From the IMG/VR virus record IMGVR_UViG_2671180458_000011: a DNA stretch of 23,839 nucleotides; one strand, written 5' to 3'. The DNA comes from a virus (Duplodnaviria; Heunggongvirae; Uroviricota; Caudoviricetes). The first letter of the stretch is position 1; the number at the start of each line of letters is the position of its first letter. Positions 1-19,747 of the stretch are shown piece by piece. A model generated the notes under the pieces. The model was not told where the DNA came from and did not search any database. It was given only the letters and a program-made list of their open reading frames with translations. Both the position numbers and the translations under genes were made by a program.

Positions 1-2
1 AA

Positions 3-1744: not shown

Positions 1745-1752
1745 GGTAAGGC

Positions 1753-2118
1753 ATGAGCGGAAAACAGTATCAGGGCACGGCCACTATCCGTGTGAACGGT
1801 CAGGAATACGAGACGCTTGAGGGGGCTACATTTTCTCCGTCAGGTTTTGAACGTGAAGTGGTGAAAGGCGCGAAAGTCTATGGTTACCGCCAGAAACCAC
1901 GTGAAGCGACGCTGGACTGCAAATTTCCGGCAGGCGGAGAAGGTTCACCAGCCGCCGATGAAATCAACAACTGGACTGCTGTCACTATCGAGTTTGTGGC
2001 GGATACCGGCGAAGTCCACATGATGACGAAGGCCTGGAGCAGTGAACCGGCCTCGCTTGACGGTGGCGGGGAGATCTCCGTGAAGTTCGCCAGCGCCACC
2101 AGTACCCGTGTTCAGTGA
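1753..2118 (+). CDS. phage tail tube protein (Mu gpM-like)
   Basis: 121-aa ORF directly after sheath; size and sequence character of Mu-type tail tube proteins. Confidence 0.75.
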   Translation: MSGKQYQGTATIRVNGQEYETLEGATFSPSGFEREVVKGAKVYGYRQKPREATLDCKFPAGGEGSPAADEINNWTAVTIEFVADTGEVHMMTKAWSSEPASLDGGGEISVKFASATSTRVQ

Positions 2119-2132
2119 TCAGGAAAAATAAA

Positions 2133-2609: not shown

Positions 2610-2733
2610 AGAAGCGGCAATTATCCTGGGGATGGTGACAAAAAGTGGCCCGGAATGGGCGCTTAACCTCCCCCTGTCGCAACTTTACCGGCACTGCCGA
2701 CAGACAGAAAAAATCATCAGAACGAAGCAGTAA
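2551..2733 (+). CDS. candidate frameshift-extension ORF of the tail assembly chaperone
   Basis: Open +1 frame overlapping the last 59 nt of the chaperone ORF and ending 2 nt before the tape measure start; conserved G/GT-like arrangement in tailed phages. Confidence 0.35.
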   Translation: MPESWQLIGGDQAQCRDQIEEAAIILGMVTKSGPEWALNLPLSQLYRHCRQTEKIIRTKQ

Positions 2734-2735
2734 GT

Positions 2736-4811: not shown

Positions 4812-6147
4812 CGGTCGTGGTGCGTTCCGTGGTGTGCCGTTCCTCGTCTGGCGTGAGCAGCGCGAACGTGGTGGGCGAAACATTGTCCGTCGGGAATATC
4901 CGTTACGGGAAACCGGTGGTGCAGACGATCTGGGACCTAAACTGGCTGAATTTACGTTCAGTGTACTTGTGATGGGGGATGATGTTCAGACACAGCGAAA
5001 TCGTCTGCGTGATGCCCTTCGTGCTCCCGGTGCCGGGGAGCTGCTTCACCCGGATTACGGCACGTTAAATGTGCTGATAAACAGCTTTGAAAGTCGTTAT
5101 AACGCCGCTGAACAGGGCGTGGTTGAGTTCACCATTAATGTCACGCCGGTAAGTGATGATACCGCACCTGCTGTCACACAGGACACGGCCGCCATTCTGG
5201 AGCAGAAGAGTACCACCGCGCTCGGGCAGGTTTTTGAAACCCTGGAAGCGGGCTGGACGGTGATCTCTGACGGAATGCACGATGTCCAGGCAATGACCGA
5301 AACCATCAGTGATAAGGTGTCCGCCCTGGAAAATGCCGTTTCCGGCATGGGGATTGTACAGGATATCAGTGCCTTTACTGCCACGTTCACGGCGCTGAAA
5401 GGGAATGCCACGGCATTACTGACAGCACCTTCCCGCATGGCCTCATCTTTTGCGGGGCTTTTCAGTGCCCTGATCACCCTGCCATCGCTGCCGTCACTGT
5501 CTTCAGGAGGCCTGAATACCCGGCCCGGTGGCAGTATCGGCCGGACGACATCCGCCGTCTCTCAGGGAATGCCGCAACTGTACAGGACATTATCTTCCCT
5601 GCGTTACGTGCTGGATGAGCAAGATAATCCGCAGACTCTCATCGGTCTGACACCGGCAGCACAAAAGAATATTCGTCTGATACGGGCGGTAATGCAGAGT
5701 GCTGCCGTGGTGGCCCAGGCACAGACCGTGGGAAAACTGCTGGATCAGGTTCTCAGTCAGGAAACCCTGCCGGACAGTGACGCAGCCCACCGTACCTGGC
5801 CTGTCTGGCTGGAAAGTTCAGTTGATCTTCAGCGCATTAACCGTGACTTAAGCGAAGCGCTCGAACGGCAGGTGATGACACTGTCCGGGCAGGGGTATAC
5901 CGCCACGGCGCTGACGCTTCGTGATGCCAGACTGGCACTGACAGAGGATCTGAATACACGGGGAGTTCAGCTACCCGGTGCAACAGTAGTGACTGTACGT
6001 ACCACCGAGCCTGCACTGGTGACCCTGTACCGTGCCACCGGGAACAGTACCGGCTGGCAACGTTTTGTGCGCCGTAACGGTATTGTTGATCCGCTGTTCA
6101 TTCCCGGAGGCCATTCAGTGGAGGTGATTAGTGAGCAGCAGGGTTGA
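4777..6147 (+). CDS. DNA circularization protein N-like tail protein (Mu gpN-like)
   Basis: 456-aa ORF overlapping the tape measure end; position and N-terminal sequence consistent with the Mu N family. True start may be the internal ATG at 4798. Confidence 0.7.
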   Translation: MSGTEGIMASGDGRGAFRGVPFLVWREQRERGGRNIVRREYPLRETGGADDLGPKLAEFTFSVLVMGDDVQTQRNRLRDALRAPGAGELLHPDYGTLNVLINSFESRYNAAEQGVVEFTINVTPVSDDTAPAVTQDTAAILEQKSTTALGQVFETLEAGWTVISDGMHDVQAMTETISDKVSALENAVSGMGIVQDISAFTATFTALKGNATALLTAPSRMASSFAGLFSALITLPSLPSLSSGGLNTRPGGSIGRTTSAVSQGMPQLYRTLSSLRYVLDEQDNPQTLIGLTPAAQKNIRLIRAVMQSAAVVAQAQTVGKLLDQVLSQETLPDSDAAHRTWPVWLESSVDLQRINRDLSEALERQVMTLSGQGYTATALTLRDARLALTEDLNTRGVQLPGATVVTVRTTEPALVTLYRATGNSTGWQRFVRRNGIVDPLFIPGGHSVEVISEQQG

Positions 6148-7255
6148 ACTGTATCTGGGCGGTGAGATTTTTTCCGGCTGGCTGACGGTGAGTGTTCGTC
6201 GCTCTCTTGAACATCTGGCGGGCTCCTTTGAACTGGGGGTAATGATGCCCGGTGTACGCCTTCCGTCATCCGTCCGTGCCGGTCAGTCTCTGGAATTGCG
6301 CATTGACGGTCAGCCTGTGATCACTGGCTGGCTGGATCAGGTCCGGCAGCGCATCAGCGCCACGCGTTTTCAGATCACGCTCAGCGGACGGGATAAAACC
6401 GGTGACCTGGTGGACTGTTCAGCCATTCATCCGGGCAGCCAGTGGAGGAACCGCACGCTGGAGCACATTGCTTCAGATTTGTGTGCTCCGTTCGGGGTCA
6501 CGGTGCGCTGGCAGGTAAATGATGCAACGGCAGCCCGGCCCTTTTCCACCTTCACACTGGAAAACTCAGAAACCGTGGCAGATGCGCTGACACGGGCCGC
6601 GAGACACAGAGGCGTCCTGGTAACCAGTAATGCCGCCGGTGAACTGGTTTTCACTCAGGCCGGCAGTCAGCGTGGCGACACGCTGACGCTGGGCGAAAAT
6701 CTGCTGGATTTGGATCACAACGTGGATCACCGTCTGCGCCACAGTGAATACCGTGTACGGGGGCACGGGCGTGGTGGTGGTCATGCCGGGGATGCACTGA
6801 CAGCCGGAACGCTGGCCGCACCCGTTGGTACGGTGACAGACAGTGCCATCCACCGTTACAGACCGAAAATTGTGCTGGCGGATCATGCTGTTGATGCAGA
6901 CGGTGCACGCCAGAGGGCTGTCCGGGAAATGCGCCGGGCGGTTGCCCGCTCTGTGCGCCTGACAGCCACCGTGCGGCACTGGTTTCGGGAGAACGGCCAG
7001 TTGTGGGATATCAACCTGCTGACGGCTGTCACGGCTCCCTGCACCGGAGTGGAAGAGCGTGATCTTCTTGTCTGTCAGGTGGAGTTTTCGCTGGATGCAA
7101 ATCACGGCGAAACCACCCGTCTGATTCTGGCACCCCGTGACGGCTTTATTGTTCCGGCAGAGCCGGGAAACAGCGGAAGCGGAAATGCGGGTGACGTGGA
7201 CGCCTTCGTGCGGGCACAGATGAAAAAACAGGGGATTAAATTCAATGATGAATGA
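6131..7255 (+). CDS. baseplate/tail protein (Mu gpP-like)
   Basis: 374-aa ORF with GTG start overlapping the preceding gene; conserved position in the Mu-type baseplate cluster. Confidence 0.7.
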   Translation: MSSRVELYLGGEIFSGWLTVSVRRSLEHLAGSFELGVMMPGVRLPSSVRAGQSLELRIDGQPVITGWLDQVRQRISATRFQITLSGRDKTGDLVDCSAIHPGSQWRNRTLEHIASDLCAPFGVTVRWQVNDATAARPFSTFTLENSETVADALTRAARHRGVLVTSNAAGELVFTQAGSQRGDTLTLGENLLDLDHNVDHRLRHSEYRVRGHGRGGGHAGDALTAGTLAAPVGTVTDSAIHRYRPKIVLADHAVDADGARQRAVREMRRAVARSVRLTATVRHWFRENGQLWDINLLTAVTAPCTGVEERDLLVCQVEFSLDANHGETTRLILAPRDGFIVPAEPGNSGSGNAGDVDAFVRAQMKKQGIKFNDE

Positions 7256-7859
7256 CGAAGTCATCAGCCGCCTTCTGGCCCCCGTAATGCGGGGTGTTCG
7301 TCTGCTGTTCGGGCGTGGTGTACTGACCGGCACAATGGACACGCTGAAAATCCAGAATGTGCAAATCACCGGTATGGATGGTGAAACCTTTGATGACGTT
7401 GAACGCCCCCAGCAGTACGGGCAAATCAGCGTCCCCCTGCCTGGTGCGGAAGTTTTTCTGGCCTGTGCTGGCGGACAACGGGATCAGGCCGTGGTGCTTG
7501 TGGTGGAAGACCGCCGCAGTCGCCCGACCGGACTTACCGCCGGAGATACCGGCGTGTATCACCATGAGGGGCACCGTATACGTCTGACAAAGAACGGCCG
7601 GATCATTGTGACCTGTAAGACGCTGGAGATTTACGCCGATGAAGGTGTTCAGGTGGATACACCGGAGGCTCACTTTACCGGTAATGTCACAGTGGATAAG
7701 AACCTGCATGTCAAAGGCAATGTGTCCATTGACGGCACCGGAAGATCACAGGGGACGTTCACGATGTCCGAAGCGGTTATTGCCGGGATCACCTATTCAG
7801 GTCATGTGCATCACGATAACGGTGAAGGCAGCAAAACGGGAGGACCAGAGAATGGCTGA
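7245..7859 (+). CDS. baseplate assembly protein V-like (Mu gp45-like spike)
   Basis: 204-aa ORF; stop overlaps the next start (ATGGCTGA at 7852-7859), a translational-coupling arrangement. Confidence 0.7.
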   Translation: MMNDEVISRLLAPVMRGVRLLFGRGVLTGTMDTLKIQNVQITGMDGETFDDVERPQQYGQISVPLPGAEVFLACAGGQRDQAVVLVVEDRRSRPTGLTAGDTGVYHHEGHRIRLTKNGRIIVTCKTLEIYADEGVQVDTPEAHFTGNVTVDKNLHVKGNVSIDGTGRSQGTFTMSEAVIAGITYSGHVHHDNGEGSKTGGPENG

Positions 7860-8289
7860 TATTGCTGTCGTCTGGGATCAGGGTTGCGGTTCCCTGCAAC
7901 TGAACGGCGCAGATCTTCTGACGGATAACAGCCTGCTGACTGCGGTCATTATTTCACTGTTTACGGACAGGCGGGCGCTGGATTCCGATGAAATCCCTGA
8001 CGGCACCCGTGACCGTCGGGGATGGTGGGGAGACAGTTTCCGGGAGCGCCCCGTTGGCTCCCGTCTCTGGCTGTTAAGCCGTGAAAAGACGCTGTCCTCC
8101 GTGGTCAGCCGTGCACAGGCCTATGCTGATGAAGCGCTGGCGTGGCTGCATAAAAGCGGTGCTGCCACATCCGTGGTATGTCATGCCATGCGTGTGGGGC
8201 ATGCTCGCCTTTCGCTTTCCGTGAAAATCACCCTGCCGGACGGAAGCAGACATCCGATGATTTTTTATGCTGATATGAAGGGGGAATGA
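7852..8289 (+). CDS. baseplate protein gp46-like
   Basis: 145-aa ORF from ATG 7852 (the ORF track's 7639 start is an upstream in-frame extension overlapping gp45); position between V-like and J-like genes. Confidence 0.7.
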   Translation: MADIAVVWDQGCGSLQLNGADLLTDNSLLTAVIISLFTDRRALDSDEIPDGTRDRRGWWGDSFRERPVGSRLWLLSREKTLSSVVSRAQAYADEALAWLHKSGAATSVVCHAMRVGHARLSLSVKITLPDGSRHPMIFYADMKGE

Positions 8290-9371
8290 TGCCTTATCAG
8301 CCCTTACCACTGGCGCAACTGATCACACAGACACAACAGGATATCAGCCAGCGCCTGCCCGGTTCGCAGCCGGGCGTGAATGAAACCACCCTGAATGCCA
8401 TTGCGTATGCACTCGCGGGTCTGTCAGCACAGGAGCATGAACATCTGGCCTGGATCTCCCGGCAGATAATTCCGACAGAAGCTGATGAAGCCGAACTCCT
8501 GAAACACTGCGCATTCTGGGGTGTCATCCGTAAACCGGCTTCCCGCGCTGACGGACCGGTACAACTGATGCTGACCACGGATGCAGGGATCACGGAAGGC
8601 GTACTCCTTCAGCGAAGCGATGGTGTTGTGTACCGCATCACCGGCTCTGCGACCGGAAAAGCCGGAACACTGAATGTTAATGTGGAGGCGGAAAGTGCGG
8701 GGCGCGCTGGAAATACCCCGACCGGAACCCGCCTGTCCTTTATCACGCCACAGGCGGGCATCAACCAGACAGCCACGGTCACCGGCACGGGACTCACCGG
8801 TGGTGCGGATGTGGAAACGGTGCCGGAGTTGCTGTCCAGGCTGGTATTCCGGGTACAGAACCCGCCATCAGGGGGAACACAGTATGATTTTGAACGCTGG
8901 GCACGGGAAGTACCGGGCGTGACGCGGGCATGGTGTAAGCCTGAATGGCCTGAGGCGGGTAGTGTTGGTGTGACTTTTGTTCAGGATAATAACCCTGACA
9001 TTTTCCCCGGAGAAGGTGATGTGAAGCGGGTGGCGGATTATATCCGCAGTCATGATGATCCGGCGACGGGCCAGCCCGTTGGTCAGCCACTTGGGCCGAC
9101 AATCAGCGTGTTTAAGCTGACCAATAAGCCGGTGGCGTTTGAGATCAGGATTGTACCCAAAACGCCGGAAAATCAGGCTGCCGTAAAACAGGCATTAACG
9201 GACCTGCTTTATAACGAATCGCGGCCGGGTGGACTTGTATTGCCTTCATCATTCTGGCGGGCTGTTGCAGGGGTGAAAGGACTGGAGGATTTTGAAGTTC
9301 GCAGCCCGCTGAAGTCCGTGATGGCCGGAGATACAGAGTTGCTGACCGTGGGGGAAATCACATGGCTGTAA
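8286..9371 (+). CDS. baseplate J-like protein (Mu gp47-like)
   Basis: 361-aa ORF overlapping both neighbours; size and position of baseplate J family. Confidence 0.8.
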   Translation: MMPYQPLPLAQLITQTQQDISQRLPGSQPGVNETTLNAIAYALAGLSAQEHEHLAWISRQIIPTEADEAELLKHCAFWGVIRKPASRADGPVQLMLTTDAGITEGVLLQRSDGVVYRITGSATGKAGTLNVNVEAESAGRAGNTPTGTRLSFITPQAGINQTATVTGTGLTGGADVETVPELLSRLVFRVQNPPSGGTQYDFERWAREVPGVTRAWCKPEWPEAGSVGVTFVQDNNPDIFPGEGDVKRVADYIRSHDDPATGQPVGQPLGPTISVFKLTNKPVAFEIRIVPKTPENQAAVKQALTDLLYNESRPGGLVLPSSFWRAVAGVKGLEDFEVRSPLKSVMAGDTELLTVGEITWL

Positions 9372-9922
9372 CCCTGACCCCGCATCAGCGTGCCCTGTTG
9401 CAGTTGCTGCCTGACGGGCTGGCATGGGATAAGCGGCCGTCATCCGTTCTTGCGGCTTTGTGCCTGGGCCTCAGTCATTCCACGGAGCGTGTTTCCTGGA
9501 CCGGTAACCAGATGCTGGCAGAACGTTTTCCTGATTCATCCCGTCTGCTGCTGGAAGACTGGGAGCGTTATCTGGGGTTACCGGAATGTGATATGACCGG
9601 CGCAACCATTCAGGAGCGTCAGCGTTATGCCGGGAATAAATACCGGATGAAACCCTCTCTTAACCGTGAATTTTATATCCGGTTTGCGGCAGAGTTTGGT
9701 TATGAAATAGATATTCAGCCATCACCGGATTCACAGTGGGTCAGTATTGTCACGATTAACAGTGAAACCGGCTACCGGAATATGAATGTGCTGGATGATA
9801 TTCTCACCCCGCTGCGTATTTATGAGGGTGGTGCGCTGGAATGTATTCTGAACCGTTATAAGCCTGCATGGCAGACGTTTATTTACGTGTATGCAAACAG
9901 CCATGAAGAGGAGACTATTTAA
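9362..9922 (+). CDS. tail protein gp48-like (DUF2313/YmfQ-like)
   Basis: 186-aa ORF directly upstream of the tail fiber gene; its stop overlaps the tail fiber ATG (TAATG at 9920-9924). Confidence 0.7.
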   Translation: MAVTLTPHQRALLQLLPDGLAWDKRPSSVLAALCLGLSHSTERVSWTGNQMLAERFPDSSRLLLEDWERYLGLPECDMTGATIQERQRYAGNKYRMKPSLNREFYIRFAAEFGYEIDIQPSPDSQWVSIVTINSETGYRNMNVLDDILTPLRIYEGGALECILNRYKPAWQTFIYVYANSHEEETI

Positions 9923-10833
9923 TGTTTCATGTTGATAATAATTCCGGCGTGGCGAATATGCCTGCGCTGGCACCGGCGCAGAGTAATACCACCACCTGGT
10001 TTACCGAAGGTGACGGACAAAAAGGTATCAGCTGGATTGGTCAGGACTGGCTGAATATTCTCCAGGCCGAACTGCTGAATATTCTGGCTGAAGCCAGTAT
10101 TCAGCCGGATAAGGCGCAGTTAAACCAGCTTACGCTGTCCATTAAAGCCATTATCGCTGCGAATGCCTTTTCCCGGAAAAACAACCTGAAAGAAATTGCT
10201 GATGCCGGTGCGGAAGCCCAGCGTCTTGCCCGTAGTTATCTTGGTCTTGGGGCGCTTGCCACAAAAAACAGTCTTGGTCCCGGTGACGTTAATGCTCTGG
10301 CGAAGGATCAGAACCTTGCCGACCTGGAGAATGCGGGAACCGCCCGTAATAATCTGGATGTTTACAGCAAAAGCGAAGGTGATAACCGTTACCTGCGCAG
10401 GGAGCAGAACGGCGCAGACATTCCGGATAAAGGCGCTTTTATCGATAACGTCGGTTTACGGGAAACGGTAAATAAGGCTGCTGATGCCCTGCCATCGGGT
10501 GGAACCGCCGTGGCAGCAAACAGACTCGCCACCCCAAGAAATATTAATGGCGTTCCTTTTGACGGAACGCAGGATATCAACATCACGTCAGGAATGACGC
10601 AGTCAACCGCAGATGGCCGGTATGTACAGAATGTTCAGCTTGGAGCACAGAGCTATCATTCACCCGGAGGCAATGAAATATCATGGAATTACAGCGCACC
10701 TTCCGGTTGTATGCTTTCCGGTATTAACGTGCAGGAAACCGGCTCCCGGTCTGCGGACAATATCGGTGGGGTCTATTATCGCCCGGTTCAGATTTATATT
10801 AATAATGCCTGGAGAACGGTAAGTTCAGTGTAA
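9922..10833 (+). CDS. tail fiber protein: constant part (9922 to about 10451) fused to the currently in-frame variable part Sv (about 10465-10833)
   Basis: 303-aa ORF; a gix-like crossover site lies inside it at 10439-10464; its C-terminal tail resembles that of the inverted cassette on the opposite strand. Confidence 0.8.
   Translation: MFHVDNNSGVANMPALAPAQSNTTTWFTEGDGQKGISWIGQDWLNILQAELLNILAEASIQPDKAQLNQLTLSIKAIIAANAFSRKNNLKEIADAGAEAQRLARSYLGLGALATKNSLGPGDVNALAKDQNLADLENAGTARNNLDVYSKSEGDNRYLRREQNGADIPDKGAFIDNVGLRETVNKAADALPSGGTAVAANRLATPRNINGVPFDGTQDINITSGMTQSTADGRYVQNVQLGAQSYHSPGGNEISWNYSAPSGCMLSGINVQETGSRSADNIGGVYYRPVQIYINNAWRTVSSV
10439..10464 (+). other. gix-like recombination site, left (inside tail fiber gene)
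   Basis: TTATCGATAACGTCGGTTTACGGGAA: 26-bp site with two imperfectly symmetric 12-bp halves around a 2-bp core, closely resembling the Mu gix / Hin hix architecture. Confidence 0.7.
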
Positions 10834-10843
10834 ACCACAGAAA

Positions 10844-10862
10844 AGGGTGCTGAATGCACCCT
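10844..10862. terminator. stem-loop between convergent tail fiber and tfa genes
   Basis: 7-bp stem AGGGTGC/GCACCCT with 5-nt loop, between tail fiber stop (10833) and tfa stop (10868); T-rich stretch follows on the + strand. Confidence 0.35.
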
Positions 10863-10867
10863 CTGAA

Positions 10868-11440
10868 TTATTCCGGTTTTTCCGGCCAGGGAATCGCCTG
10901 GTAATGCCCCTCACTGGCAATATCATTAAAGTGCATTTCTTTAAGCTGTCGGATATACGCCATCCAGCGCGTCAGCTGTAATTTATTTTCATCGCTAATC
11001 ATGTCCAGTTTTAATTCTGTTTTCCAGTCATCCACGGTTTCGTTGGCTTCCTGGAGCAGCGATGAGCGACGCTTTTCAGCAACCGTCTTCCAGTTTACCG
11101 GCACCTTTGATATCAGGCCATCAGAAAACTGCCAGTTACCGTCAATATTCACACCTTCCGGCAGTTCGTCCACTTCAACAACAGTAAAACCTGCCGGATA
11201 TAAAGCAGAGACATCTTCAGCAACAGAGCAGATAATACCCGTTACAGGCGAAATACAGAGTTTGTATTTCTTTGTGAAAAGCGGGATAGATTCATAAAAA
11301 TCCCTTCCGTCCTCACTCTGGAAATACTGAACATCCTCACCATAGGGTTTGTCTTTCGGGTAATATCGTTTGACATTAATCAGTTGCATAAACATCACCA
11401 TGTAAATCAATGATAAAAACAGGAATAATACTATCGCCAT
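10868..11440 (-). CDS. tail fiber assembly protein (Tfa/U'-like), paired with the inverted Sv' cassette
   Basis: C-terminus ends in the Tfa-type motif (IPWPEKPE). The first 17 codons are strongly hydrophobic, so the real start may be the internal ATG at 11389. Confidence 0.65.
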   Translation of the reverse strand: MAIVLFLFLSLIYMVMFMQLINVKRYYPKDKPYGEDVQYFQSEDGRDFYESIPLFTKKYKLCISPVTGIICSVAEDVSALYPAGFTVVEVDELPEGVNIDGNWQFSDGLISKVPVNWKTVAEKRRSSLLQEANETVDDWKTELKLDMISDENKLQLTRWMAYIRQLKEMHFNDIASEGHYQAIPWPEKPE

Positions 11441-11510
11441 ATACAGGCAATGCTTGTCTGAAATAACGCATATTTCAGATGCTGGCTGCTGTGTGCTATG
11501 CCCCCGTTAA

Positions 11511-11877
11511 TTAAATACTTGCAGCGGATACCCAATGCCCATTAATACAATATTGTATCTGTCTGTAATAAACACGGTCATCACCACCACGCATTTCCCA
11601 GTCTCCGTTAGTCTTAAAACCGGTAATCACATTTCCTGATGACAGGGAGTAATTATATTCCAGTCCGCCGCTTAATGCCTGCGCTCCCAGTCTTACCCCT
11701 GTAACATAACGCTGATTGGCCGTTGATTCCGGCATTCCTGACGTAATGTTTATATCCTGCGTGCCGTCAAAGGCGACACCATTGATTCTGCGGGCATTTG
11801 CCAGCCTGCTTGCTGCAACAGCCGTACCGTTTGATGGCAGGGCATTCGCGGCCCTGTTTACAGTATCCCGTAAACCG
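11511..11877 (-). CDS. alternative tail fiber C-terminal cassette (Sv'), promoterless in the current orientation
   Basis: Minus-strand frame open from the right gix-like site to the stop at 11511; C-terminus resembles that of the + strand fiber. Confidence 0.6.
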
Positions 11878-11890
11878 AGGTTTCAGGGAT
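11865..11890 (-). other. gix-like recombination site, right (inverted relative to left site)
   Basis: ATCCCGTAAACCGAGGTTTCAGGGAT; the 12-mer CCCGTAAACCGA is the exact reverse complement of TCGGTTTACGGG in the left site; sits just upstream of gin as in Mu. Confidence 0.7.
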
Positions 11891-11944
11891 GCCGTATATC
11901 TGCTTTAAAAGGCCTTTCCACCTCTTTTTAAGGAAGGTAAATAC

Positions 11945-12505
11945 ATGCTGATTGGCTATATACGCGTATCAACAAATGACCAGAACACAGGTTTACAAAG
12001 AAATGCGCTGGAATGTGCAGGATGTGAGCAGATTTTTGAAGACAAAATGAGTGGTAAAACGACACAGCGGCCGGGACTGAAGCGGGCACTGAAGAAACTA
12101 AAACCCGGTGACACGCTGATGGTCTGGAAACTGGACAGGCTGGGGCGCAGTATGCGCCACCTTGTTGCGCTGACAGATGAATTACAGCAACAGGGGATAA
12201 ATTTTCGTAGTCTTACTGACAACATTGATACGTCAACCCCCATGGGGCGCTTCTTTTTTCACATAATGGGTGCGCTGGCAGAAATGGAGCGTGAATTAAT
12301 TGTCGAACGGACACGGGCTGGTCTTGCAGCTGCCCGTGAAAGGGGACGAACCGGCGGCAGACCCCGCCGTCTCACGCAGGAACAATACGAGCAGGTCGGG
12401 CGTTTACTGGCCGGGGGTGTCAGTCGAAGACAGGTGGCACTTATTTTTGATATCGGTCTTTCAACCCTTTATCGTTATTATCCTGCGAGCGTTTCGGAAA
12501 AATAA
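11945..12505 (+). CDS. gin: serine DNA invertase (Gin/Pin/Hin family)
   Basis: 186-aa protein beginning MLIGYIRVSTNDQNTGLQRNALECAGCEQIFEDK, near-identical in pattern to Mu Gin including the catalytic-serine N-terminal domain and C-terminal HTH; AAGGAAGG Shine-Dalgarno upstream. Confidence 0.9.
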   Translation: MLIGYIRVSTNDQNTGLQRNALECAGCEQIFEDKMSGKTTQRPGLKRALKKLKPGDTLMVWKLDRLGRSMRHLVALTDELQQQGINFRSLTDNIDTSTPMGRFFFHIMGALAEMERELIVERTRAGLAAARERGRTGGRPRRLTQEQYEQVGRLLAGGVSRRQVALIFDIGLSTLYRYYPASVSEK

Positions 12506-12604
12506 GACGCTCTCTTTGTTGGGCCTTTACTGAATTAACGCAAAATGGCGTTTATCGGTCTGTGGATATGATAATTCAGTTTATTCAGGAACAGGCTGAT
12601 TATT

Positions 12605-14644
12605 ATGACGTCCAAATGGGTTCAACTATCATCAATGCCCGGAAACTTTACTGTTAAAGTTTCCGGTGGTACAGCGGCATTTCTTGAGGCTCCCTTTCCT
12701 CCGGCCGAAACAAAAGGAGGAATGACATTTGCTGACTGTCTCATCAGTTTTAATACACGGGATTGCCTGTGGGTAAGGCCAGTATCCGGTGATCCGAGTG
12801 TGGAAATTACCGGAGCGGGTATTGGTGCGGTCATTCCGTTAAGTGCTGATGTTGCCGGTACTGCTGAACCGTCAGACTGGGATAATGCTGAAACACATAC
12901 CCGTCCGTCAGGAAATGAAACTGCTTCCAGCTCCCCTTCCTGGTATTACGTGGTGGTTCTTGCTGGTCAGTCAAACGGTATGGCTTACGGTGAAGGTCTG
13001 CCACTGCCGGAGACATATGACCGCCCCGAACCGCGTATTATGCAGTTAGCCCGTCGCAGTACAGTCACGCCGGGAGGTAAAGCCTGTCAGTATAACGACA
13101 TCATTCTGGCCGACCACTGTCTGCATGATGTGCAGGATATGAGTGGAAAAAATCACCCGAAAGCGGATGTGGCTAAAGGGCAATATGGCACCGTGGGTCA
13201 GGGGCTTCACATTGCCAAAAAACTGCTGCCGTTTATTCCGGCAGATGCGGGGATTCTGCTGGTTCCCTGCTGCCGTGGTGGTTCTGCATTCACGGCGGGT
13301 GCTGACGGCACGTACAGTGACAGCACGGGTGCTTCAGAGGACTCAGCCCGCTGGGGTGTGGATAAGCCGCTGTATAAGGACTTAATCAGCCGGACAAAAG
13401 CGGCACTGGCGAAGAACCCGAAAAACCGCCTGCTTGCTGTGGTGTGGATGCAGGGCGAGTTTGATATTGATGCGAAGCCGACGGAGCATTCTGCGCTGTT
13501 TCTGGCGATGGTGGAAAAATTCCGCGCAGACCTGGCTGAACAGGCGGAACAGTGTACCGGTGGCAGTGCTGCTGGCGTTCCGTGGATTTGTGGTGATACC
13601 ACGTATTTCTGGAAACAGAAAAACGAACAGGCATACCAGGCAATCTATGACGGCTACAAAAATAAAACAGATAAAAACATTCATTTCGTCCCATTAATGA
13701 CAGATGAAAATGGCGCGAATGTACCCACCAACAATCCGGCAGAAGACCCGGATATTGAATCCATTGGTTATTACGGCTCAACGTGGCGTAACAGTGCCGC
13801 CACCTGGACATCTGCGGACCGGGCCAGCCATTTCAGTTCATGGGCACGTCGTGGGATTATTTCCGACCGTCTGGCCACGGCAGTTCTGACTCATGCGGGG
13901 CGAACCACAGTAAAAGCCGATGTTCCATCTTCTGAAACTGAAGCACCAGTGCCGTCACCTTCAGAAACTGAAGCAGTAACCACAACACTGCTGTCTTACC
14001 GTGTCAGTGAGTCAGAAGGAAATCTGAAAGCCCAGGGCTGGGAGCCGGCTGGCGGTAAAGCTGAAATTATCAGTGATGCAGGAGGCACAGGTGGTAAGGC
14101 AATGAAACTGACCAAGGAAACAGGTAAATCATCCTGGTATCTGGATCATGATGCCGGTACTGGTGCTGAACTGCTGAAAAATGGTGGTTTAATCAGTTGT
14201 CGTTTTAAAGTACCGGGCGACCTGGTGGCAAACCAGTATGTCATGGCGCTTTACTGGCCGGTTTCCTCTCTGCCGCAGGGTGTCACCCTGACAGGGGATG
14301 CAGGGAATAATCTGCTGGCATCGTTCTACATCCAGACAGACGCAAAAGACCTGAATGTGATGTACCACAATGCAAAAGTGGCAACAAATAACCAGAAACT
14401 GGGAACCTTTGGTGCATTTGATAATGAATGGCATACGCTGGCCTTCCGTTTTGCAGGAAATAACAGCCTTCAGGTTATTCCGGTTATTGATGGTCAGGAT
14501 GGTGCCGCGTTTACCCTGACGCAGTCACCAGTAGGAACTTTCCCGGTGGACAAACTCCGCGTAACGGATATCACAAAAAATGCAACTTACCCGGTGCTGA
14601 TTGACAGCATTGTGGTGGAAGTGAAAAAAGCGGTAACAGAATAA
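12605..14644 (+). CDS. SGNH/SASA-type esterase with C-terminal lectin-like domain (NanS-p-like sialate O-acetylesterase candidate)
   Basis: 679 aa; GQSNG block at about residue 120, WMQGEFD block and a D-x-x-x-H block consistent with SASA/DUF303 esterases; Pro/Ser/Thr/Glu-rich linker then about 230-aa beta-rich domain. Family call from motif recognition only. Confidence 0.5.
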   Translation: MTSKWVQLSSMPGNFTVKVSGGTAAFLEAPFPPAETKGGMTFADCLISFNTRDCLWVRPVSGDPSVEITGAGIGAVIPLSADVAGTAEPSDWDNAETHTRPSGNETASSSPSWYYVVVLAGQSNGMAYGEGLPLPETYDRPEPRIMQLARRSTVTPGGKACQYNDIILADHCLHDVQDMSGKNHPKADVAKGQYGTVGQGLHIAKKLLPFIPADAGILLVPCCRGGSAFTAGADGTYSDSTGASEDSARWGVDKPLYKDLISRTKAALAKNPKNRLLAVVWMQGEFDIDAKPTEHSALFLAMVEKFRADLAEQAEQCTGGSAAGVPWICGDTTYFWKQKNEQAYQAIYDGYKNKTDKNIHFVPLMTDENGANVPTNNPAEDPDIESIGYYGSTWRNSAATWTSADRASHFSSWARRGIISDRLATAVLTHAGRTTVKADVPSSETEAPVPSPSETEAVTTTLLSYRVSESEGNLKAQGWEPAGGKAEIISDAGGTGGKAMKLTKETGKSSWYLDHDAGTGAELLKNGGLISCRFKVPGDLVANQYVMALYWPVSSLPQGVTLTGDAGNNLLASFYIQTDAKDLNVMYHNAKVATNNQKLGTFGAFDNEWHTLAFRFAGNNSLQVIPVIDGQDGAAFTLTQSPVGTFPVDKLRVTDITKNATYPVLIDSIVVEVKKAVTE

Positions 14645-14649
14645 AAAAA

Positions 14650-14678
14650 TCCCGCCGGTCATGATATGGCTGGCGGGA
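14650..14678. terminator. stem-loop after the esterase gene; canonical intrinsic terminator only when read on the minus strand
   Basis: Stem TCCCGCC/GGCGGGA (extendable with wobble pairs) with A7 run immediately 5' on the + strand, which is a U-tract 3' of the hairpin on the minus strand. Confidence 0.4.
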
Positions 14679-14790
14679 GCTACCTAACCCATAAAGGAAA
14701 ATAAAAATACTCCCGAAGGAGTGGTTATCAGTCGCTTCGATGTTTTTACCCGATAACGAATTATGTAGTCAATATCAAAGGTAAGGTTAT

Positions 14791-14973
14791 ATGACATTCG
14801 TTCATACAATGCTGCTTTATTTCTGCGCAGTGGTCAGTGCGTTATATCTGGTGAGCGGCGGTTATAAGGTCATCAGAAATTATATTCGCCGTAAAATTGA
14901 TGATGCGGCAGCTGAAAAACTCAGTAAAACAGCACAGGCACCGTCATCCCCAAACGACCCGACCCCGCTCTGA
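14791..14973 (+). CDS. small predicted membrane protein (60 aa), unknown function
   Basis: Single N-terminal hydrophobic helix then charged tail; AAAGGTAAGG Shine-Dalgarno-like sequence upstream; AT-rich foreign-looking DNA. Confidence 0.4.
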   Translation: MTFVHTMLLYFCAVVSALYLVSGGYKVIRNYIRRKIDDAAAEKLSKTAQAPSSPNDPTPL

Positions 14974-15008
14974 TAACGGGGCAATATACCTGCAAAAGGA
15001 GAATATTC

Positions 15009-15254
15009 ATGCCAGAGATTAAAGGCACGGTTACTGAAGAGCTTGTCAAACAGGCACTTTATTCTGAAGAAGTGAACCGCGTGCTGAAGGCGCAGGTTCG
15101 CAAGGATTTTGAGGCACAAATCGACGCATATGTTGATGAAGTGCTGGCCCGAATGGTTGGCCATTCTCCGGCTGAAAACAGCACGGAGAATGAGCCTCAA
15201 GCCGTAGAGCAACCAGAGCCGGTTCAGCCCGGAACTGACGGTACTATGATGTAA
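15009..15254 (+). CDS. small acidic protein (81 aa), unknown function
   Basis: AAAGGAGA Shine-Dalgarno 7 nt upstream of ATG; helical-looking N-terminal half and acidic Pro/Glu-rich tail; followed by a hairpin. Confidence 0.45.
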   Translation: MPEIKGTVTEELVKQALYSEEVNRVLKAQVRKDFEAQIDAYVDEVLARMVGHSPAENSTENEPQAVEQPEPVQPGTDGTMM

Positions 15255-15263
15255 CAATACCGA

Positions 15264-15283
15264 CCGGCAGGTTTCCCTGCCGG
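15264..15283. terminator. hairpin between convergent small genes
   Basis: CCGGCAGG-TTTC-CCTGCCGG, 8-bp stem with 4-nt loop, between the + gene ending 15254 and the minus gene ending 15293. Confidence 0.4.
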
Positions 15284-15292
15284 GTGAATTTG

Positions 15293-15463
15293 TTAATGCA
15301 CGTTTTGTGTACTTTCCCTCCGGGGAGAACAGGCAGGACATATCAGCATCCTGAAACAGGACGCATTTTGGGGTTTGTATGTCTTGCCATTTTGAGATCG
15401 AGAACGGCGATAGATGAGCTGTAAGGGAGTCTTACAGGCAGGGCAAACAGGCTCTTTATCCAT
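15293..15463 (-). CDS. small zinc-ribbon protein (56 aa, two CPAC motifs), unknown function
   Basis: Minus-strand ATG at 15463 preceded by AGGAGA with 8-nt spacing; Cys-Pro-Ala-Cys at residues 7-10 and 41-44. The ORF track's longer version (to 15487) starts upstream of the Shine-Dalgarno sequence. Confidence 0.4.
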   Translation of the reverse strand: MDKEPVCPACKTPLQLIYRRSRSQNGKTYKPQNASCFRMLICPACSPRRESTQNVH

Positions 15464-15565
15464 GATAAAGATCTCCTTTTTATGCATCTCTGCTTTACAG
15501 GAGACCGGGGAATATCATAGGATACGCCACGAGCTCGAAGTAAAGCATTGATGCGAATTTGTTCC

Positions 15566-15595
15566 AGGTCCAGATAGCTGTAACTATCTGGACCT
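15566..15595. promoter_or_regulatory. perfect 12-bp inverted repeat with 6-bp spacer (candidate operator or hairpin)
   Basis: AGGTCCAGATAG ctgtaa CTATCTGGACCT in the divergent intergenic region between the zinc-ribbon gene and com. Confidence 0.4.
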
Positions 15596-15643
15596 CCCTT
15601 TATGTAGTATCCTGTTGATTTGAAACATACTACATATACGCGC

Positions 15644-15821
15644 GATCCTACCTTCACTGTATAAAAAGTCAATAAAATGATCATTTTATGATCGTTTTCA
15701 CCACCTAAGTCTTCGTTTTCTTTAAGTAAATAATCACCGCCCTGAATCATTGTTGATGACTTTTCAATCTATTTGTTGTATCAATTAAACAAATCGAATC
15801 GATCGTTTTTGTCGATCGATT
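15644..15821 (+). promoter_or_regulatory. GATC-dense mom-operon control region (candidate Dam-methylation-sensitive promoter region)
   Basis: Five GATC sites in about 175 bp (15644, 15679, 15690, 15801, 15814), including a 9-bp inverted repeat AATCGATCG n7 CGATCGATT at 15797-15821 just upstream of com. Confidence 0.45.
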
Positions 15822-15864
15822 GCATGAGAAAGGCATCAACAACAAAGCAGGAGGTTATGCGGCC

Positions 15865-16065
15865 ATGTATCGAAACATACGGTGCCGACACTGCAATAAG
15901 CTACTGGCACGGGCCAGTTTCAGTTATCTGGAAGTAAAATGTCCGCGCTGTAAAACCCTCAATCAAATCACATCTCCGAGCGCCACAGAGCACCCCACAT
16001 ACACAAGGAAATCCTGTCGTGGGGAACAGAAAGCAAGCCACATCCCGTATCATCAGCACGCCTGA
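15865..16065 (+). CDS. com: Com-like zinc-finger translational activator of mom
   Basis: [14 protein letters not shown]...VKCPRCKTL...EHPT matches the Mu Com four-cysteine pattern; AGGAGG Shine-Dalgarno 10 nt upstream of ATG 15865 (ORF track starts at TTG 15820); 3' end overlaps the next gene as in Mu. Confidence 0.7.
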
Positions 16066-16756
16066 ACTTATTCGCTATAACGACAATATCGTTGGTTATG
16101 GCTCCCGTGAGTTGCGGGTTGAGACAATAAGTTGCTGGCTGGCCAGACTGGTCATCGTCAATAAACATTACAGCCACCGTTTCGTAAATAACTCCTACCT
16201 TCATCTGGGCATATTTTCAGAACGGGAGCTGGTTGGCGTAATGCAATGGGGCTATGCCCTTAATCCAAACAGTGGTGCACGCGTCGTAACGGGCACGCGG
16301 AACCGTGAATATATGGAGCTTAACCGGTTATGGCTGCATGACTGTATGCCGAGAAACTCCGAATCAAGGGCAATCAGTTACGCGCTCAAGCTAATCAGGC
16401 AGCTTTATCCGCAGGTACAGTGGGTTCAGTCGTTTGCAGATGAGCGTTGTGGCTGTCTTGGTGTCGTGTATCAGGCAAGCAATTTTGATTATGTAGGCAG
16501 CCACGAATCAACATTCTATGAACTTGATGGCGAGTGGTATCACGAGATTTGCAGGAATGCCATTAAACGAGGCGGACAGCGAGGTGAACATCTGAGGGCT
16601 AATATCGACAGAGCCAGTGTTCATAAATTCCGTCAGTTTCGTTACATCCGGTTTCTGAACAAGAGGGCCAGAAAACGCCTCAACACAAAGCTATTCAAAG
16701 TCCAGCCTTACCCAAAACCACAAACAGTTAAAACTGGTTTAAAAGAGAGTGAGTGA
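16019..16756 (+). CDS. mom: Mom-like DNA modification protein
   Basis: 245-aa ORF (GTG start) beginning inside the 3' end of com, the characteristic com-mom overlap; last gene before the prophage right end as in Mu. Called from context, not from remembered sequence. Confidence 0.6.
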
Positions 16757-18044
16757 ACGCTTAAAAACTCATTCTAAAACCCAAAAGAAAAGCGCCGATT
16801 TAGTATCAAATAAGTTGCGTATCGGCGTTTTTCAGCGGTATCAAATGAAATGCAAATCGGTATCAAAAAAATCGCCGCGCTATAATAAGCAGCTCAGAGC
16901 TGCCAATAAAGTCACTAACGTGCTGGATACAGAACTCACATCAGCCCGTGCCGCGGAACGTAAGGCCCAGCAAACTGCACAACAAGGTATGAAGGAAGAA
17001 GAGCGAGAGTTGTGCGCGTCACATTTTCCAGTGGTGACTTTGGAGCAATTGCCTGACATTCGCGATTTAGAACGTCAACATGAGCGGGGAATTCAGCATG
17101 AAATTGAAAGAGTTAAAGCTGAACTACATCGACTGAACATTGAGTTGACCAAACGTATGTCTGAAGCCAAACGTGTGGATACCGGGGCGCTCGTTGAGGC
17201 AGGGGCTGATTTGGACGATATTACTGTTTATTTACAGCGTTTGCAGGAACTGACCGAAGAAGCCCTGCCGGAAAAGCTCAATCGCTTCCTTGATTATCTT
17301 AACCGTTCATCCGATGACGGCGTAACACAACTGCTTAGCCATATTGAGCATGAGGTGCTGGTGATTGAGGAGCGCCTCAATGAACTCAATGAAACTATGT
17401 TCAGGGTTGATTTTCAGCCGTATCGCTACCTGCGTCTGGATACCAAAAAAGTTGTCCATGAAAGCCTGCGCACGCTTGAAAAAGCACAGCGTCAGCTAAA
17501 TGCCGCCCGATTTGTTGATGATAATGGCGAGAGCTATTATAAGGCTTTGCAGATACTGGTGGCGCAATTGCGGGATGCTTGTGAACGAAACCGTACCCTG
17601 GGAGCAAAAGCGCTACTGGATCCCCGTTTTCGACTGGAGTTCGCCGTATCGGTGATGGATCGTCAGAGCGGAAATGTGATTGAGTCTCGTACCGGCTCAC
17701 AGGGTGGTAGCGGTGGAGAAAAAGAGATTATCGCTTCTTACGTGTTAACAGCTTCACTTAGCTACGCACTTTGTCCTGCGGGGAGCCGTTATCCGCTTTT
17801 CGGTACCATTATCCTTGATGAAGCCTTCTCCCGCAGTTCTCATGCGGTGGCGGGTAGGATCATTGCCGCGCTTAGAGAATTTGGCTTACATGCAGTATTT
17901 ATCACCCCCAATAAGGAAATGCGCCTGCTGCGTGACCATACTCGTTCGGCGATTGTTGTCCACCGGCGCGGTCAGAATTCCAATATGGCTTCTCTGAGCT
18001 GGGAAGAGCTTGAACGACACTACCAGCGACGGGGGAACGCGTAG
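16749..18044 (+). pseudogene. jetC 3' fragment: C-terminal half of a Wadjet SMC-like ATPase, truncated by the prophage
   Basis: Contains signature-like GSGGEKE, Walker B IILDEAF and an H-loop His but no Walker A; the first 48 codons or so (16749-16896) are a Lys-rich read-through of phage-end sequence; coiled-coil-like sequence begins about 16897. Confidence 0.6.
16800..16896 (+). repeat. prophage right-end repeat array (candidate transposase-binding sites) ending in CA
   Basis: Three direct copies of GTATCAAA at 16803, 16838 and 16860 plus ATCGGCG/ATCGCCG motifs; GCGTTTTTC at 16825-16833 resembles part of the Mu R-end; terminal CA at 16895-16896. Confidence 0.4.
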
Positions 18045-18045
18045 G

Positions 18046-19194
18046 ATGTATTCCCCAGATGAATTGCGTGAAAAGCTTGCCCGGCAGTGGGATAGCGCAA
18101 AACTTCGGGCTGAACGCTTACTGTCCCCCGGTAACTGGCCGCTCTGCCTGCCTATTGGTAAACCTTCCACGAAAATATTTGCAGAGCAGACTCAGCGCGT
18201 TTTGCAGCACGTACAGCGATGGAGGCAAGTTGCGGTTGGGCACGTGGAATGGGAAGCGGTGAGTTATCGGGCAAGTGATACACCAGTATTAATGCCGTTG
18301 CGCTGGATTCTGAATAGCCCTTCTGAGTGGATCAACGCCGCTGCGGATCCGGTTGTGAGCCGGGAATTTCGCTTGCTGGAAGGAATTATTGAACAAGTTA
18401 ATCCCATTTTTCACCCGCTGTTGGTAAAGCATCGCTCTCTCTGGCGGCACAAAGATCCGCAGGGCGTCATCAGCGCCGCCACGCTGGCCTGCCGATTAGA
18501 GCCGGGCTGCGCAAAAGGGCTGCCGTTAAGATTGCTTTCCGGGCAAGGAGTGGATACCAAATTTATCGAGAATAATATTTCGTTATTAACCCGACTGTTA
18601 GACGTGCGGTTTTCAGGAGAAGCCAGCGAGCAGGGATTAACAACTTTTCTTGATGCTTTTGATGAGTCCAGTCACTGGGTTTTAGTTGTACCATTATCAC
18701 CCGGCTTACTTCCTTTTAAAAAATGCCGGGTAACAACGGCGGAACTGGCAGAAACAACATTACCTGCGTCGCAAGTACTGGTGGTTGAAAATGAGCAGTG
18801 TCTGCATCATCTTCCAGCATTATCTGACACTATCGCGATTTTAGGCTGTGGCCTGGACGTGCAATGGCTATCCAGTTCTGTTCTGGATGAAAAACGCGTT
18901 GCTTATTGGGGGGACATGGATAGCTGGGGATTACTGATGCTGGCGAGAGCCAGGCGCTGTCGTCCGACGCTTGATGCCCTGCTCATGAACCGTGAGTTGT
19001 TTGAGCAGTATGCCAGTCATAGCGCCGTTCCAGAACCGGTCATAGCGAAGGAAGCTGTACCTGATGGCTTGCTTAACGAAGAGGCCGATTTTTATCGCTA
19101 CTTAACCCGTTTACCGTGTGGTCGTCTGGAGCAGGAGTTTTTGCCAGTGGGGATTGCGGAAGAGGTGCTTCTCAGGTGGGGAAAAGAGAGTTAA
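18046..19194 (+). CDS. JetD-like Toprim-domain protein (Wadjet subunit D)
   Basis: ATG at 18046 two nt after the jetC stop (ORF track starts at TTG 18010); about 382 aa with VVENE and YWGDMD motifs typical of the DUF2220 Toprim-like domain. Confidence 0.65.
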   Translation: MYSPDELREKLARQWDSAKLRAERLLSPGNWPLCLPIGKPSTKIFAEQTQRVLQHVQRWRQVAVGHVEWEAVSYRASDTPVLMPLRWILNSPSEWINAAADPVVSREFRLLEGIIEQVNPIFHPLLVKHRSLWRHKDPQGVISAATLACRLEPGCAKGLPLRLLSGQGVDTKFIENNISLLTRLLDVRFSGEASEQGLTTFLDAFDESSHWVLVVPLSPGLLPFKKCRVTTAELAETTLPASQVLVVENEQCLHHLPALSDTIAILGCGLDVQWLSSSVLDEKRVAYWGDMDSWGLLMLARARRCRPTLDALLMNRELFEQYASHSAVPEPVIAKEAVPDGLLNEEADFYRYLTRLPCGRLEQEFLPVGIAEEVLLRWGKES

Positions 19195-19552
19195 AAAAGT
19201 CATGCTTGCTCTGGAAGGTTATTTACGCGGTATTTTGTAGTGGTTGTTGCGAAAGTCTGCGTTGATGGTCCTGATACCTTACCGGGTAGAGGGACTTTCC
19301 ATCAGTCAGTTTAGATACTGTGGCAACTGTCGCCTTTAGGTGGACAAATGCATAAATTATTAAACTATTAAATTTCTTGTTTTCAGGCAGCAGAGAGAAG
19401 GTATATCAGAGGGTACTGAGGTGTATAAACGTCACGAACATCCGTGAAAAGGCGAAAAAAACCAGCCAATAGATAATGCTTTGCAATGGCCAGAAATCTA
19501 CCGTAGCCAGAAAGTGAAAAAGCCCCGCTTTGCAGCGAGGCCTTATGAATAG

Positions 19553-19575
19553 TGGTGCCCGGACTCGGAATCGAA
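19553..19575 (-). repeat. 3'-terminal 23 nt of tRNA-Phe (att-type direct repeat); not a functional tRNA
   Basis: Minus strand reads TTCGATTCCGAGTCCGGGCACCA, matching the 3' end of E. coli tRNA-Phe (T-loop, acceptor strand, CCA); sequence further upstream does not form a tRNA body. Confidence 0.65.
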
Positions 19576-19747
19576 GATTTCATTTATCATATTGATATTA
19601 ATCTCGTTTATTTGGTTTGATGAAAAATGTACCCTCTCTTGTACCCTCGGTCCCTTCTGGTGGTTTTTATGAGAACAAGTAGATCAAGATTTTTGTCATC
19701 AGAACACGTGTATTTTTGTGGGTTTTATTCCTGAGTTTTATTCCTTT

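Follow-up and report, generated by a model that had tools for sequence, protein, structure and literature searches.

The right end of a transposable prophage in Escherichia coli lies against two genes resembling parts of the anti-plasmid system Wadjet, which raises the question of whether the phage has broken a jetABCD operon and what is left of that operon. In an intact Wadjet system, loop extrusion is carried out by an SMC complex of JetA, JetB and JetC; on recognising small circular DNA, this complex licenses cleavage by the Toprim nuclease JetD. We analysed the whole 23,839-nucleotide stretch of IMG/VR record IMGVR_UViG_2671180458_000011 (the window), for which a preliminary description had proposed that the right end of a transposable phage interrupts jetC. 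The same reading emerged here, as positions 1–16884 were collinear with a Mu-like prophage and jetC was present from codon 710: a Mu-like prophage has very probably inserted in jetC of a type I Wadjet operon and inactivated the system by insertional disruption. The features of the window were as follows.

1–16884, plus strand: rightmost 16.9 kb of a Mu-like transposable prophage of the Sp18-like family (collinear with the F7508 prophage, 98.7% identity)
16019–16756, plus strand: mom, the last phage gene towards the phage right end (Pfam PF25680 Mom, E 4.5e-77; annotated as Mom in relatives)
16749–18044, plus strand: chimeric ORF of 431 aa (45 phage codons, a hybrid codon AAT giving Asn for Asp710, then JetC 711–1095)
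16803–16884, plus strand: phage right terminus, last 82 nt, with three GTATCAAA repeats (16803, 16838, 16860), ending ...GCGCTATA
16885–16888, plus strand: presumptive right-hand copy of the target duplication, ATAA, the first host bases (match to intact jetC from 16885)
16885–18044, plus strand: jetC 3' fragment, codons 710–1095 (phmmer against PDB 8as8_A residues 710–1095, E 3.7e-245)
18046–19194, plus strand: complete jetD, 382 aa (PADLOC JetD1 PDLC00532, positions 1–381 of 383, E 1.5e-193)
19553–19575, minus strand: 23-nt copy of the 3' end of the tRNA-Phe gene pheV (alignment with GF4-3 pheV, L003 11667–11742)
19576–23839, minus strand: distal end of a CP4-type pheV island (Pfam match; gene tables of the same junction contigs)

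The prophage and its terminus in jetC

The counterpart of the prophage portion was found at L005 28624–45510, in the 38.86-kb prophage of O157:H7 strain F7508, where MuA, MuB, Gam, Mor and gpT are encoded; the window does not reach the left 22 kb of its own prophage, and MuA and MuB are known from this collinear relative. Genes within the window included those for tail sheath, tail tube, tape measure, baseplate and tail fibre, an invertible segment and gin, as well as a SASA/DUF6645 cargo gene, com and mom (Mu-type Pfam families in the gene tables). Com and mom, both with Pfam matches, occupied the extreme right end, as in the Mu-type gene order. The tail-sheath protein was common to too many strains to be lineage-specific.

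Members of the Sp18-like family were present at many sites in 233 of 5426 complete genomes, in up to four places per genome, and split sorM, comR, ureC and a YdcF-family gene. This agrees with reports that Sp18-like phages occupy many loci, often splitting genes (PMC7430833; PMC10132054), and that STEC genomes often carry one to three or more copies (PMC10132054). Sp18 of the O157:H7 strain Sakai, which has been predicted to be intact (PMC2669165), belongs to the same family and shares its gene order and termini (TGTAACC...GCGCTATA), with 97.4% identity over the right-end 2.2 kb; it too is intragenic, splitting sorM, whereas the insertion site here is jetC. Over the same 2.2 kb, the nearest sequenced relatives were the prophages of 2010C-3347 and of O157:H7 strains Z852 and Z1813 (99.9%), followed by that of F7508 (99.6%).

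DNA alignment to intact jetC, together with comparison of phage termini, placed the boundary between phage and jetC at 16884|16885. Homology to the intact jetC of GF4-3, KY202 and CX12 began at 16885, the second base of codon 710, and the phage right terminus ...GCGCTATA was unchanged up to 16884 in six independent insertions, each at a different locus (this window, F7508, ERL06-2497, 23CRST047, FRIK944 and Sakai). The same terminal sequence at unrelated sites is a mark of transposition as opposed to site-specific integration. The preliminary description had correctly noted repeat-laden DNA at the phage end, which corresponds to the three GTATCAAA repeats; these are putative transposase end-binding sites, and an inverted counterpart, TTTGATAC, was present at the phage left end. 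Its placement of the phage end at 16896 has to be moved to 16884, since the terminus is invariant only to that base and jetC homology starts at the next. With the junction at this position, the proposed target duplication GAGCT is wrong and the duplicated target is probably ATAA (16885–16888). The flanks of the Sakai, F7508 and ERL06-2497 insertions, at which both junctions were read, share four bases (TAAA, ATAA and ATAG), while FRIK944 is irregular; the target-site duplication of Mu itself is 5 bp. A phage end at 16891, suggested by a 'CA' end (...AAGCA) and a 100% BLAST match to F7508, was ruled out because jetC and the flank upstream of garL in F7508 share the 7 nt ATAAGCA by chance.

The chimeric reading frame and jetD

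Profile searches, proposed in the preliminary description for 16897–18044 and 18046–19194, returned JetC1 and JetD1 matches. The ORF following mom had been described as a jetC 3' fragment with a signature motif and Walker B but no Walker A, and the PADLOC, Pfam and PDB matches agreed on this. PADLOC JetC1 (PDLC00511) matched 16749–18044 with an E-value of 5.9e-171, covering only profile positions 694–1097 of 1108, and the sole Pfam match was SbcC_Walker_B. The PADLOC alignment started at ORF residue 26, inside the phage leader, which we took as a spurious extension given that the DNA and PDB alignments begin at codon 710. Of the ATPase head the fragment has the C-terminal half, preceded by the distal returning coiled-coil arm; the GSGGEKE signature motif is at 17706–17726 (JetC G984–E990) and the Walker B motif IILDEAF at 17808–17828 (E1022 at 17820–17822). 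Walker A, the hinge (residues 508–601; PMC12647877) and the N-terminal arm were absent from it in the PADLOC and PDB JetC alignments, so that it is not a full-length SMC protein. The predicted start of the ORF is the GTG recorded for the 431-aa protein in NCBI assemblies, and no protein using the alternative ATG (16845) was on record. The phage-derived leader, earlier estimated at about 48 codons, comprises 45 codons and the first base of codon 46.

The gene at 18046–19194, for which Toprim-like motifs had been noted, is a complete jetD1. It combines an N-terminal Pfam DUF3322 domain (E 7.9e-44) with a Toprim-type JetD_C nuclease domain (E 2.5e-41), matches residues 1–382 of PDB 8q72_M and is 100% identical to JetD of CX12. 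Catalytic E248 (VVENE, 18787–18789) and D290/D292 (YWGDMD, 18913–18921) are intact. Searches of the window by tblastn with JetA, JetB and JetC 1–709 gave no match, which bears out the earlier statement that only the 3' part of jetC and jetD remain here; of the four-gene order jetA-jetB-jetC-jetD, the window holds jetC 710–1095 and jetD.

Intact orthologues, carriers and competing explanations

The order glcA-jetABCD-pheV was found in 9 of 5426 complete E. coli genomes, with products of 498 (JetA), 249 (JetB), 1095 (JetC) and 382 aa (JetD). Comparison with such an uninterrupted locus, suggested in the preliminary description, showed jetC to be a continuous 1095-aa gene in GF4-3, CX12 and KY202, and from codon 710 onward the window was 98.5–99.96% identical to the intact operons. 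One of the nine is GF4-3, the source of the JetABCD complex (type I Wadjet; PDB 8AS8, 8BFN, 8Q72) that has been reconstituted and structurally solved; its operon occupies the corresponding glcA-pheV locus, and the DNA it shares with the window was 98.5% identical. Compared to GF4-3, 6 of 386 residues differed in JetC 710–1095 (one of them at the hybrid junction codon), as did 3 of 382 in JetD, besides the engineered E248A of the solved protein; the signature motif, Walker B E1022 and JetD E248 were conserved. Unlike in GF4-3, the prophage interrupts jetC at codon 710, and the operon promoter would be displaced by ~39 kb.

The exact chimeric protein was found on 80 contigs. The six listed were NCBI E. 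coli drafts from six different assemblies (GCA_047866365.1, GCA_053517735.1, GCA_043597505.1, GCA_043590735.1, GCA_017818375.1 and GCA_043590665.1), with flanks consistent on both sides of the junction. The junction occurred in none of the 5426 complete E. coli genomes, and searches of the viral, metagenome and species-representative genome collections did not find its right-hand sequence either. No carrier contig exceeded 50 kb; the longest, of 46.7 kb, begins 34.4 kb upstream of the ORF, ~4.3 kb short of the expected phage left end. Look-up of the four predicted JetC(1–709)-plus-tail left-junction proteins found no exact match on record, and a JetB homologue search gave only a 1-residue variant on a single 1.5-kb contig. 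When the left junction was sought with a flexible DNA pattern, the metagenome and genome collections gave no match, a result that is uninformative because the right-junction control was equally absent from them.

These observations bear on how the junction arose. That it is an assembly chimera would fit its absence from complete genomes, but the identical chimeric protein on 80 contigs, with consistent flanks in the six assemblies listed, leaves this idea with next to no probability; the junction is real and clonal. More serious is the possibility that there was no simple insertion, and that a Mu-associated deletion, or an inversion or translocation by recombination between two Mu-like copies in the genome, left jetA, jetB and the jetC 5' part lost or beside another prophage copy. 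Multiple Sp18-like copies in STEC genomes (often one to three or more, in up to four places; PMC10132054) would allow such events, the start of the 46.7-kb contig inside the prophage, with no carrier contig above 50 kb, fits a repeat there, and the left junction was found neither by protein look-up nor by pattern searches. On the other hand, the boundary between phage and jetC falls exactly at the conserved terminus, as transposition predicts, the prophage portion within the window (16.9 kb) is collinear and undeleted, and the database negatives carry little weight as the right junction is missing from those collections too. We therefore consider a deletion or rearrangement unlikely.

It is extremely unlikely that the 431-aa ORF represents a gene in its own right that works together with JetD. 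NCBI does annotate it as a protein ('SbcC/MukB-like Walker B domain-containing protein') rather than a pseudogene, and each of the eight complete genomes in which the jet locus was examined has a 448-aa protein annotated under this name. However, these 448-aa annotations sit within the continuous 1095-aa ORF that equals the purified and solved JetC, so the split is an annotation artefact, and the first 45 codons of the ORF here are phage terminal DNA. Half an ABC or SMC head that lacks Walker A does not bind ATP.

Under simple insertion, a ~39-kb Sp18-like prophage would have integrated at jetC codon 710 in an operon between glcA and pheV, separating the promoter, jetA, jetB and jetC 1–709 from jetC 710–1095 and jetD. 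The missing parts are thus expected at the other prophage end, where glcA-jetA-jetB-jetC(1–709) should be joined to TGTAACCAGGTGAATC with ATAA duplicated. The left junction would have jetC ...CTGAACTCGATAA abutting the prophage left end, and its predicted reading is ...GAATCTGAACTCGATAA followed by TGTAACCAGGTGAATCATTTGATACC.

Predicted loss of function and decay of the locus

The 431-aa ORF could neither form an ATPase head nor dimerise, as it is without Walker A, the hinge and the N-terminal arm, and because JetC is truncated we predict that plasmid restriction has been lost here. The GF4-3 orthologue restricts small circular plasmids in an ATP-dependent manner; none of the four subunits is dispensable, with no cleavage by JetABC alone or JetD alone, and both ATPase-dead JetC E1022Q and JetD E248A are inactive (bioRxiv 10.1101/2022.10.04.510915). 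Since the ORF would be non-functional as a motor and an intact JetD is inactive alone, we infer that the Wadjet system is dead in this lineage. No plus-strand promoter-like sites were detected in 15700–19700, and transcription of the jetC remnant and jetD would need read-through of the phage com-mom late operon. No terminator-like sites were detected between mom and 18348. As the jetC remnant is fused in frame to the phage terminus just after mom, with no terminator between, it and jetD could conceivably be co-transcribed with com-mom in lytic growth as effective phage cargo serving phage or lysogen. If so, the JetC head fragment might be dominant-negative against a Wadjet complex and the orphan JetD nuclease might act on competing circular DNA, but we regard this as very unlikely.

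Inactivation of the operon may even predate the phage, because jetA carries the nonsense mutation W206* in four of the nine operon-bearing complete genomes (KY202, KY174, CFIAFB20190167 and FHI_NMBU_11). These genomes are among the nearest relatives of the window, three at 1 SNP and one at 2, and CX12, with intact jetA, is at 2 SNPs; the only site that discriminates the W206* group, 17205, has the ancestral state in the window, which is therefore assignable neither to the group nor away from it. Another 18 complete genomes hold jetD-only or jetA-only stubs. Other decayed copies of the glcA-pheV locus reflect point mutations or deletions, whereas here a transposable phage was inserted. The rare operon has been damaged independently by Mu-like insertion (80 contigs), jetA nonsense mutation (4 complete genomes) and deletions (18), a pattern compatible with neutral decay as well as with an anti-plasmid system that is often lost. 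Overall, this is ordinary insertional disruption of a known anti-plasmid system by a known kind of element, not a new system. Defence-system finders would see an orphan JetD and a 'Walker B domain protein', which should be scored neither as active nor as novel.

Beyond jetD, the 23-nt pheV copy at 19553–19575, judged by its sequence, is the att repeat that ends a genomic island integrated at pheV; ARAGORN found no complete tRNA gene in the window. The island portion encodes DUF4942, DUF5983, CbtA/CbeA toxin-antitoxin, DUF987 and RadC proteins and an antirestriction gene, and is 94% identical to the KY202 island and 88% identical to that of CX12.

Wadjet genes at the prophage end

The window carries an already described defence system, disrupted by a transposable prophage of a familiar type. 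Its Wadjet locus is orthologous to the best-characterised Wadjet, JetABCD of strain GF4-3. The following features were located.

Features around the junction in the window
16019-16756: Mom ORF (Pfam Mom, E 4.5e-77)
16749-18044: ORF after mom, 431 aa (Pfam SbcC_Walker_B; PADLOC JetC1 PDLC00511)
16877-16888: Sp18-like phage end (ends also read at 6653 and 45510 of the F7508 prophage locus L005, 2585-2600 of locus L022 and 61-80 of locus L023)
17706-17726: signature motif GSGGEKE
17808-17828: Walker B motif IILDEAF, including E1022
18046-19194: jetD, 382 aa (PADLOC JetD1 PDLC00532; Pfam DUF3322 and JetD_C)
18787-18789: JetD E248
18913-18921: JetD D290/D292
19544-19519, minus strand: terminator-like hairpin after the att repeat, followed by a CP4-type island
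19553-19575: 23-nt copy of the pheV 3' end (att repeat)

The ORF after mom, whose sole Pfam match was SbcC_Walker_B, aligned with just positions 694-1097 of the 1108-position JetC1 profile (E 5.9e-171), while the jetD product was full-length (positions 1-381 of 383, E 1.5e-193). A PDB search aligned residues 710-1095 of GF4-3 JetC (8as8_A) end to end with 16884-18041 (E 3.7e-245), and residues 1-382 of 8q72_M with the JetD ORF; 8q72_M is JetD(E248A), unlike the window JetD, in which Glu 248 is intact. JetA, JetB and JetC 1-709 had no match within the window by tblastn. The preliminary description had assigned these two ORFs to JetC and JetD from SMC-head and Toprim-like motifs, all of which are real, and its reading of the locus is essentially correct except for the junction coordinate and the target duplication.

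Using 16700-19400 as a megablast query, we found that 9 of 5426 complete E. coli genomes matched from 16885 onward, all with the full Wadjet operon, and that none of the 5426 carried the phage-jetC junction. In GF4-3, CX12 and KY202 the gene order is glcB-glcA-jetA-jetB-jetC-jetD-(pheV) and jetC is one continuous 1095-aa ORF, which aligned with the window from 16885, the second base of codon 710. RefSeq annotates this ORF as two features, a 156-nt pseudo 'ATP-binding protein, partial' and a 'SbcC/MukB-like Walker B domain-containing protein' of 448 aa; the same split appears at all eight complete-genome loci retrieved (6873-10160 in L001, L004 and L003, the last from GF4-3; 2849-6136 in L017-L021), including that of the strain with the solved JetC structure. 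The split is an artefact of annotation and gives intact genes a truncated appearance.

In an intact Wadjet, JetABC extrudes loops as an SMC complex and JetD is a Toprim nuclease; none of the four subunits is dispensable, cleavage is absent with JetABC alone and with JetD alone, and restriction is abolished by JetC(E1022Q), which kills the ATPase, or JetD(E248A) (bioRxiv 10.1101/2022.10.04.510915). The JetC hinge comprises residues 508-601 (PMC12647877). Residue 710 lies past it, within the returning coiled coil, so that three parts are missing from the residual product: Walker A with the N-terminal head half, the outgoing coiled-coil arm and the dimerising hinge. Such a product would be unable to form an ATPase, and we infer that Wadjet is inactive in this lineage. 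The operon promoter would now lie ~39 kb from the jetC fragment and jetD. The plus strand of 15700-19700 had no promoter-like site, and the stretch from mom to 18348 had no terminator-like site; any expression of the pair would therefore probably depend on read-through out of the late com-mom operon.

Phage terminus and expected target duplication

Right ends were aligned for six independent insertions (window, F7508, ERL06-2497, 23CRST047, FRIK944 and Sakai). The phage end was invariant to ...CGCCGCGCTATA, with divergence directly after, and this terminus ends at 16884 in the window, where homology to intact jetC starts at 16885. The junction is thus 16884/16885, and neither the end at 16896 nor the GAGCT duplication proposed in the preliminary description holds. 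An end at 16891, to which the 100% match with F7508 extends, was also rejected, as the extra 7 nt (ATAAGCA) are shared by chance between jetC and the sequence upstream of garL in F7508.

Where both junctions could be read, the element was TGTAACC...GCGCTATA, and four bases were common to both flanks: TAAA in Sakai, ATAA in F7508 and ATAG in ERL06-2497. Since these insertions share four bases, the duplicated target of the window copy is expected to be ATAA (16885-16888), and its left junction is predicted to read ...CTGAACTCGATAA/TGTAACCAGGTG. The FRIK944 junction, in ureC, was irregular: it has an additional T, and phage end and target are identical over 8 nt (GCGCTATA). Sp18-like right ends finish in TA, vs CA in Mu, and their flanks share four bases (n = 3 insertions), vs five in Mu, with an invariant terminal A in the place of the fifth.

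Origin of the junction

Window positions 1-16884 are collinear with the right 16.9 kb of the 38,858-bp prophage of F7508 (O157:H7) at 98.7% identity. That prophage encodes a Mu transposase, MuB-type ATPase, Gam and Mor, as well as a Mu-type portal, gpT head protein, contractile tail, Gin, Com and Mom. In O157:H7 Sakai the family is represented by Sp18, a predicted-intact Mu-like phage whose relatives have strain-specific locations (PMC2669165, PMC7430833, PMC10132054). Members of the family were present in 233 of the 5426 complete genomes; their insertion sites were many and frequently intragenic, with sorM split in Sakai and, elsewhere, comR, ureC and a YdcF-family gene.

A protein identical to the 431-aa chimera is recorded on 80 contigs. 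Those displayed, six in number, are E. coli drafts from six different NCBI assemblies with consistent flanks (Mu baseplate to mom on one side; jetD and a DUF4942/CbtA/CbeA/RadC island on the other), which rules out misassembly; the junction is a clonally inherited insertion. No draft contig carrying it exceeds 50 kb, and the longest (ABXWUO010000033.1, 46.7 kb) starts 34.4 kb upstream of the chimeric ORF, at a point in the prophage close to where the MuB gene ends and ~4.3 kb away from the expected left end; the position of this break suggests repeated DNA, for example an IS element or a second Mu-like copy. Predicted left-junction proteins had no exact record. The left-junction pattern had no match in metagenome and genome collections; a right-junction control was equally absent there and in the viral collection, making this search uninformative. 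From the exact coincidence of the boundary with the phage terminus, and from the known behaviour of the Sp18-like family, we infer a simple insertion with jetA, jetB and jetC 1-709 at the phage left end, and regard a rearrangement involving Mu-like copies, or a deletion next to the junction, as improbable.

At 10447-11882 and 11945-12505, an invertible tail-fibre segment (flanked by 179-nt inverted repeats, 74% complementary) adjoins a Gin-type resolvase gene, and the tail-fibre assembly gene lies in opposite orientations in two same-lineage assemblies (L011, the longest contig, and L012). Between gin and com-mom, a 679-aa cargo gene with SASA (sialate O-acetylesterase-type) and DUF6645 domains (12605-14644) corresponds to ECs_4993 in Sp18.

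Lineage and decay of the Wadjet locus

The window JetD is identical to that of CX12, and a private C-to-T change at 17535 (JetC H927Y), seen in none of the eight complete-genome alleles compared, is the only lineage-specific substitution in 2.7 kb of host DNA; on these sequence comparisons, a recent event would fit. Across this 2.7 kb, KY202, KY174 and CFIAFB20190167 are nearest (one SNP each), and FHI_NMBU_11 and CX12 (jetA intact) each differ by two. Four of the nine operon genomes (KY202, KY174, CFIAFB20190167 and FHI_NMBU_11) carry a TGG-to-TAG stop at jetA codon 206 (W206*; 5240-5242 in L001 from KY202, also in L017, L018 and L019), an inactivation of the locus independent of phage insertion. 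The one site discriminating this group is ancestral in the window, and this lineage may carry either the stop or an intact jetA.

Few E. coli genomes keep the glcA-pheV Wadjet locus, which is in decay and being eroded by deletions: 18 other complete genomes have only jetD or jetA stubs. The jetD stubs cover the last 600-1100 nt of the gene (3' end) and the jetA stubs the first 322 nt (5' end), as in W444, MB53, PT62, 14EC033 and LHM10-1. A 513-aa JetC N-terminal product on record (P0030, in a cluster of 14 members) finishes in an unrelated C-terminal tail, its aligned part being 100% identical to the E. coli JetC allele, and may be another independent jetC disruption. Downstream of jetD, the pheV repeat marks the boundary of the CP4-type island, whose identity to its counterparts in the nearest relatives reaches only 88-94%.
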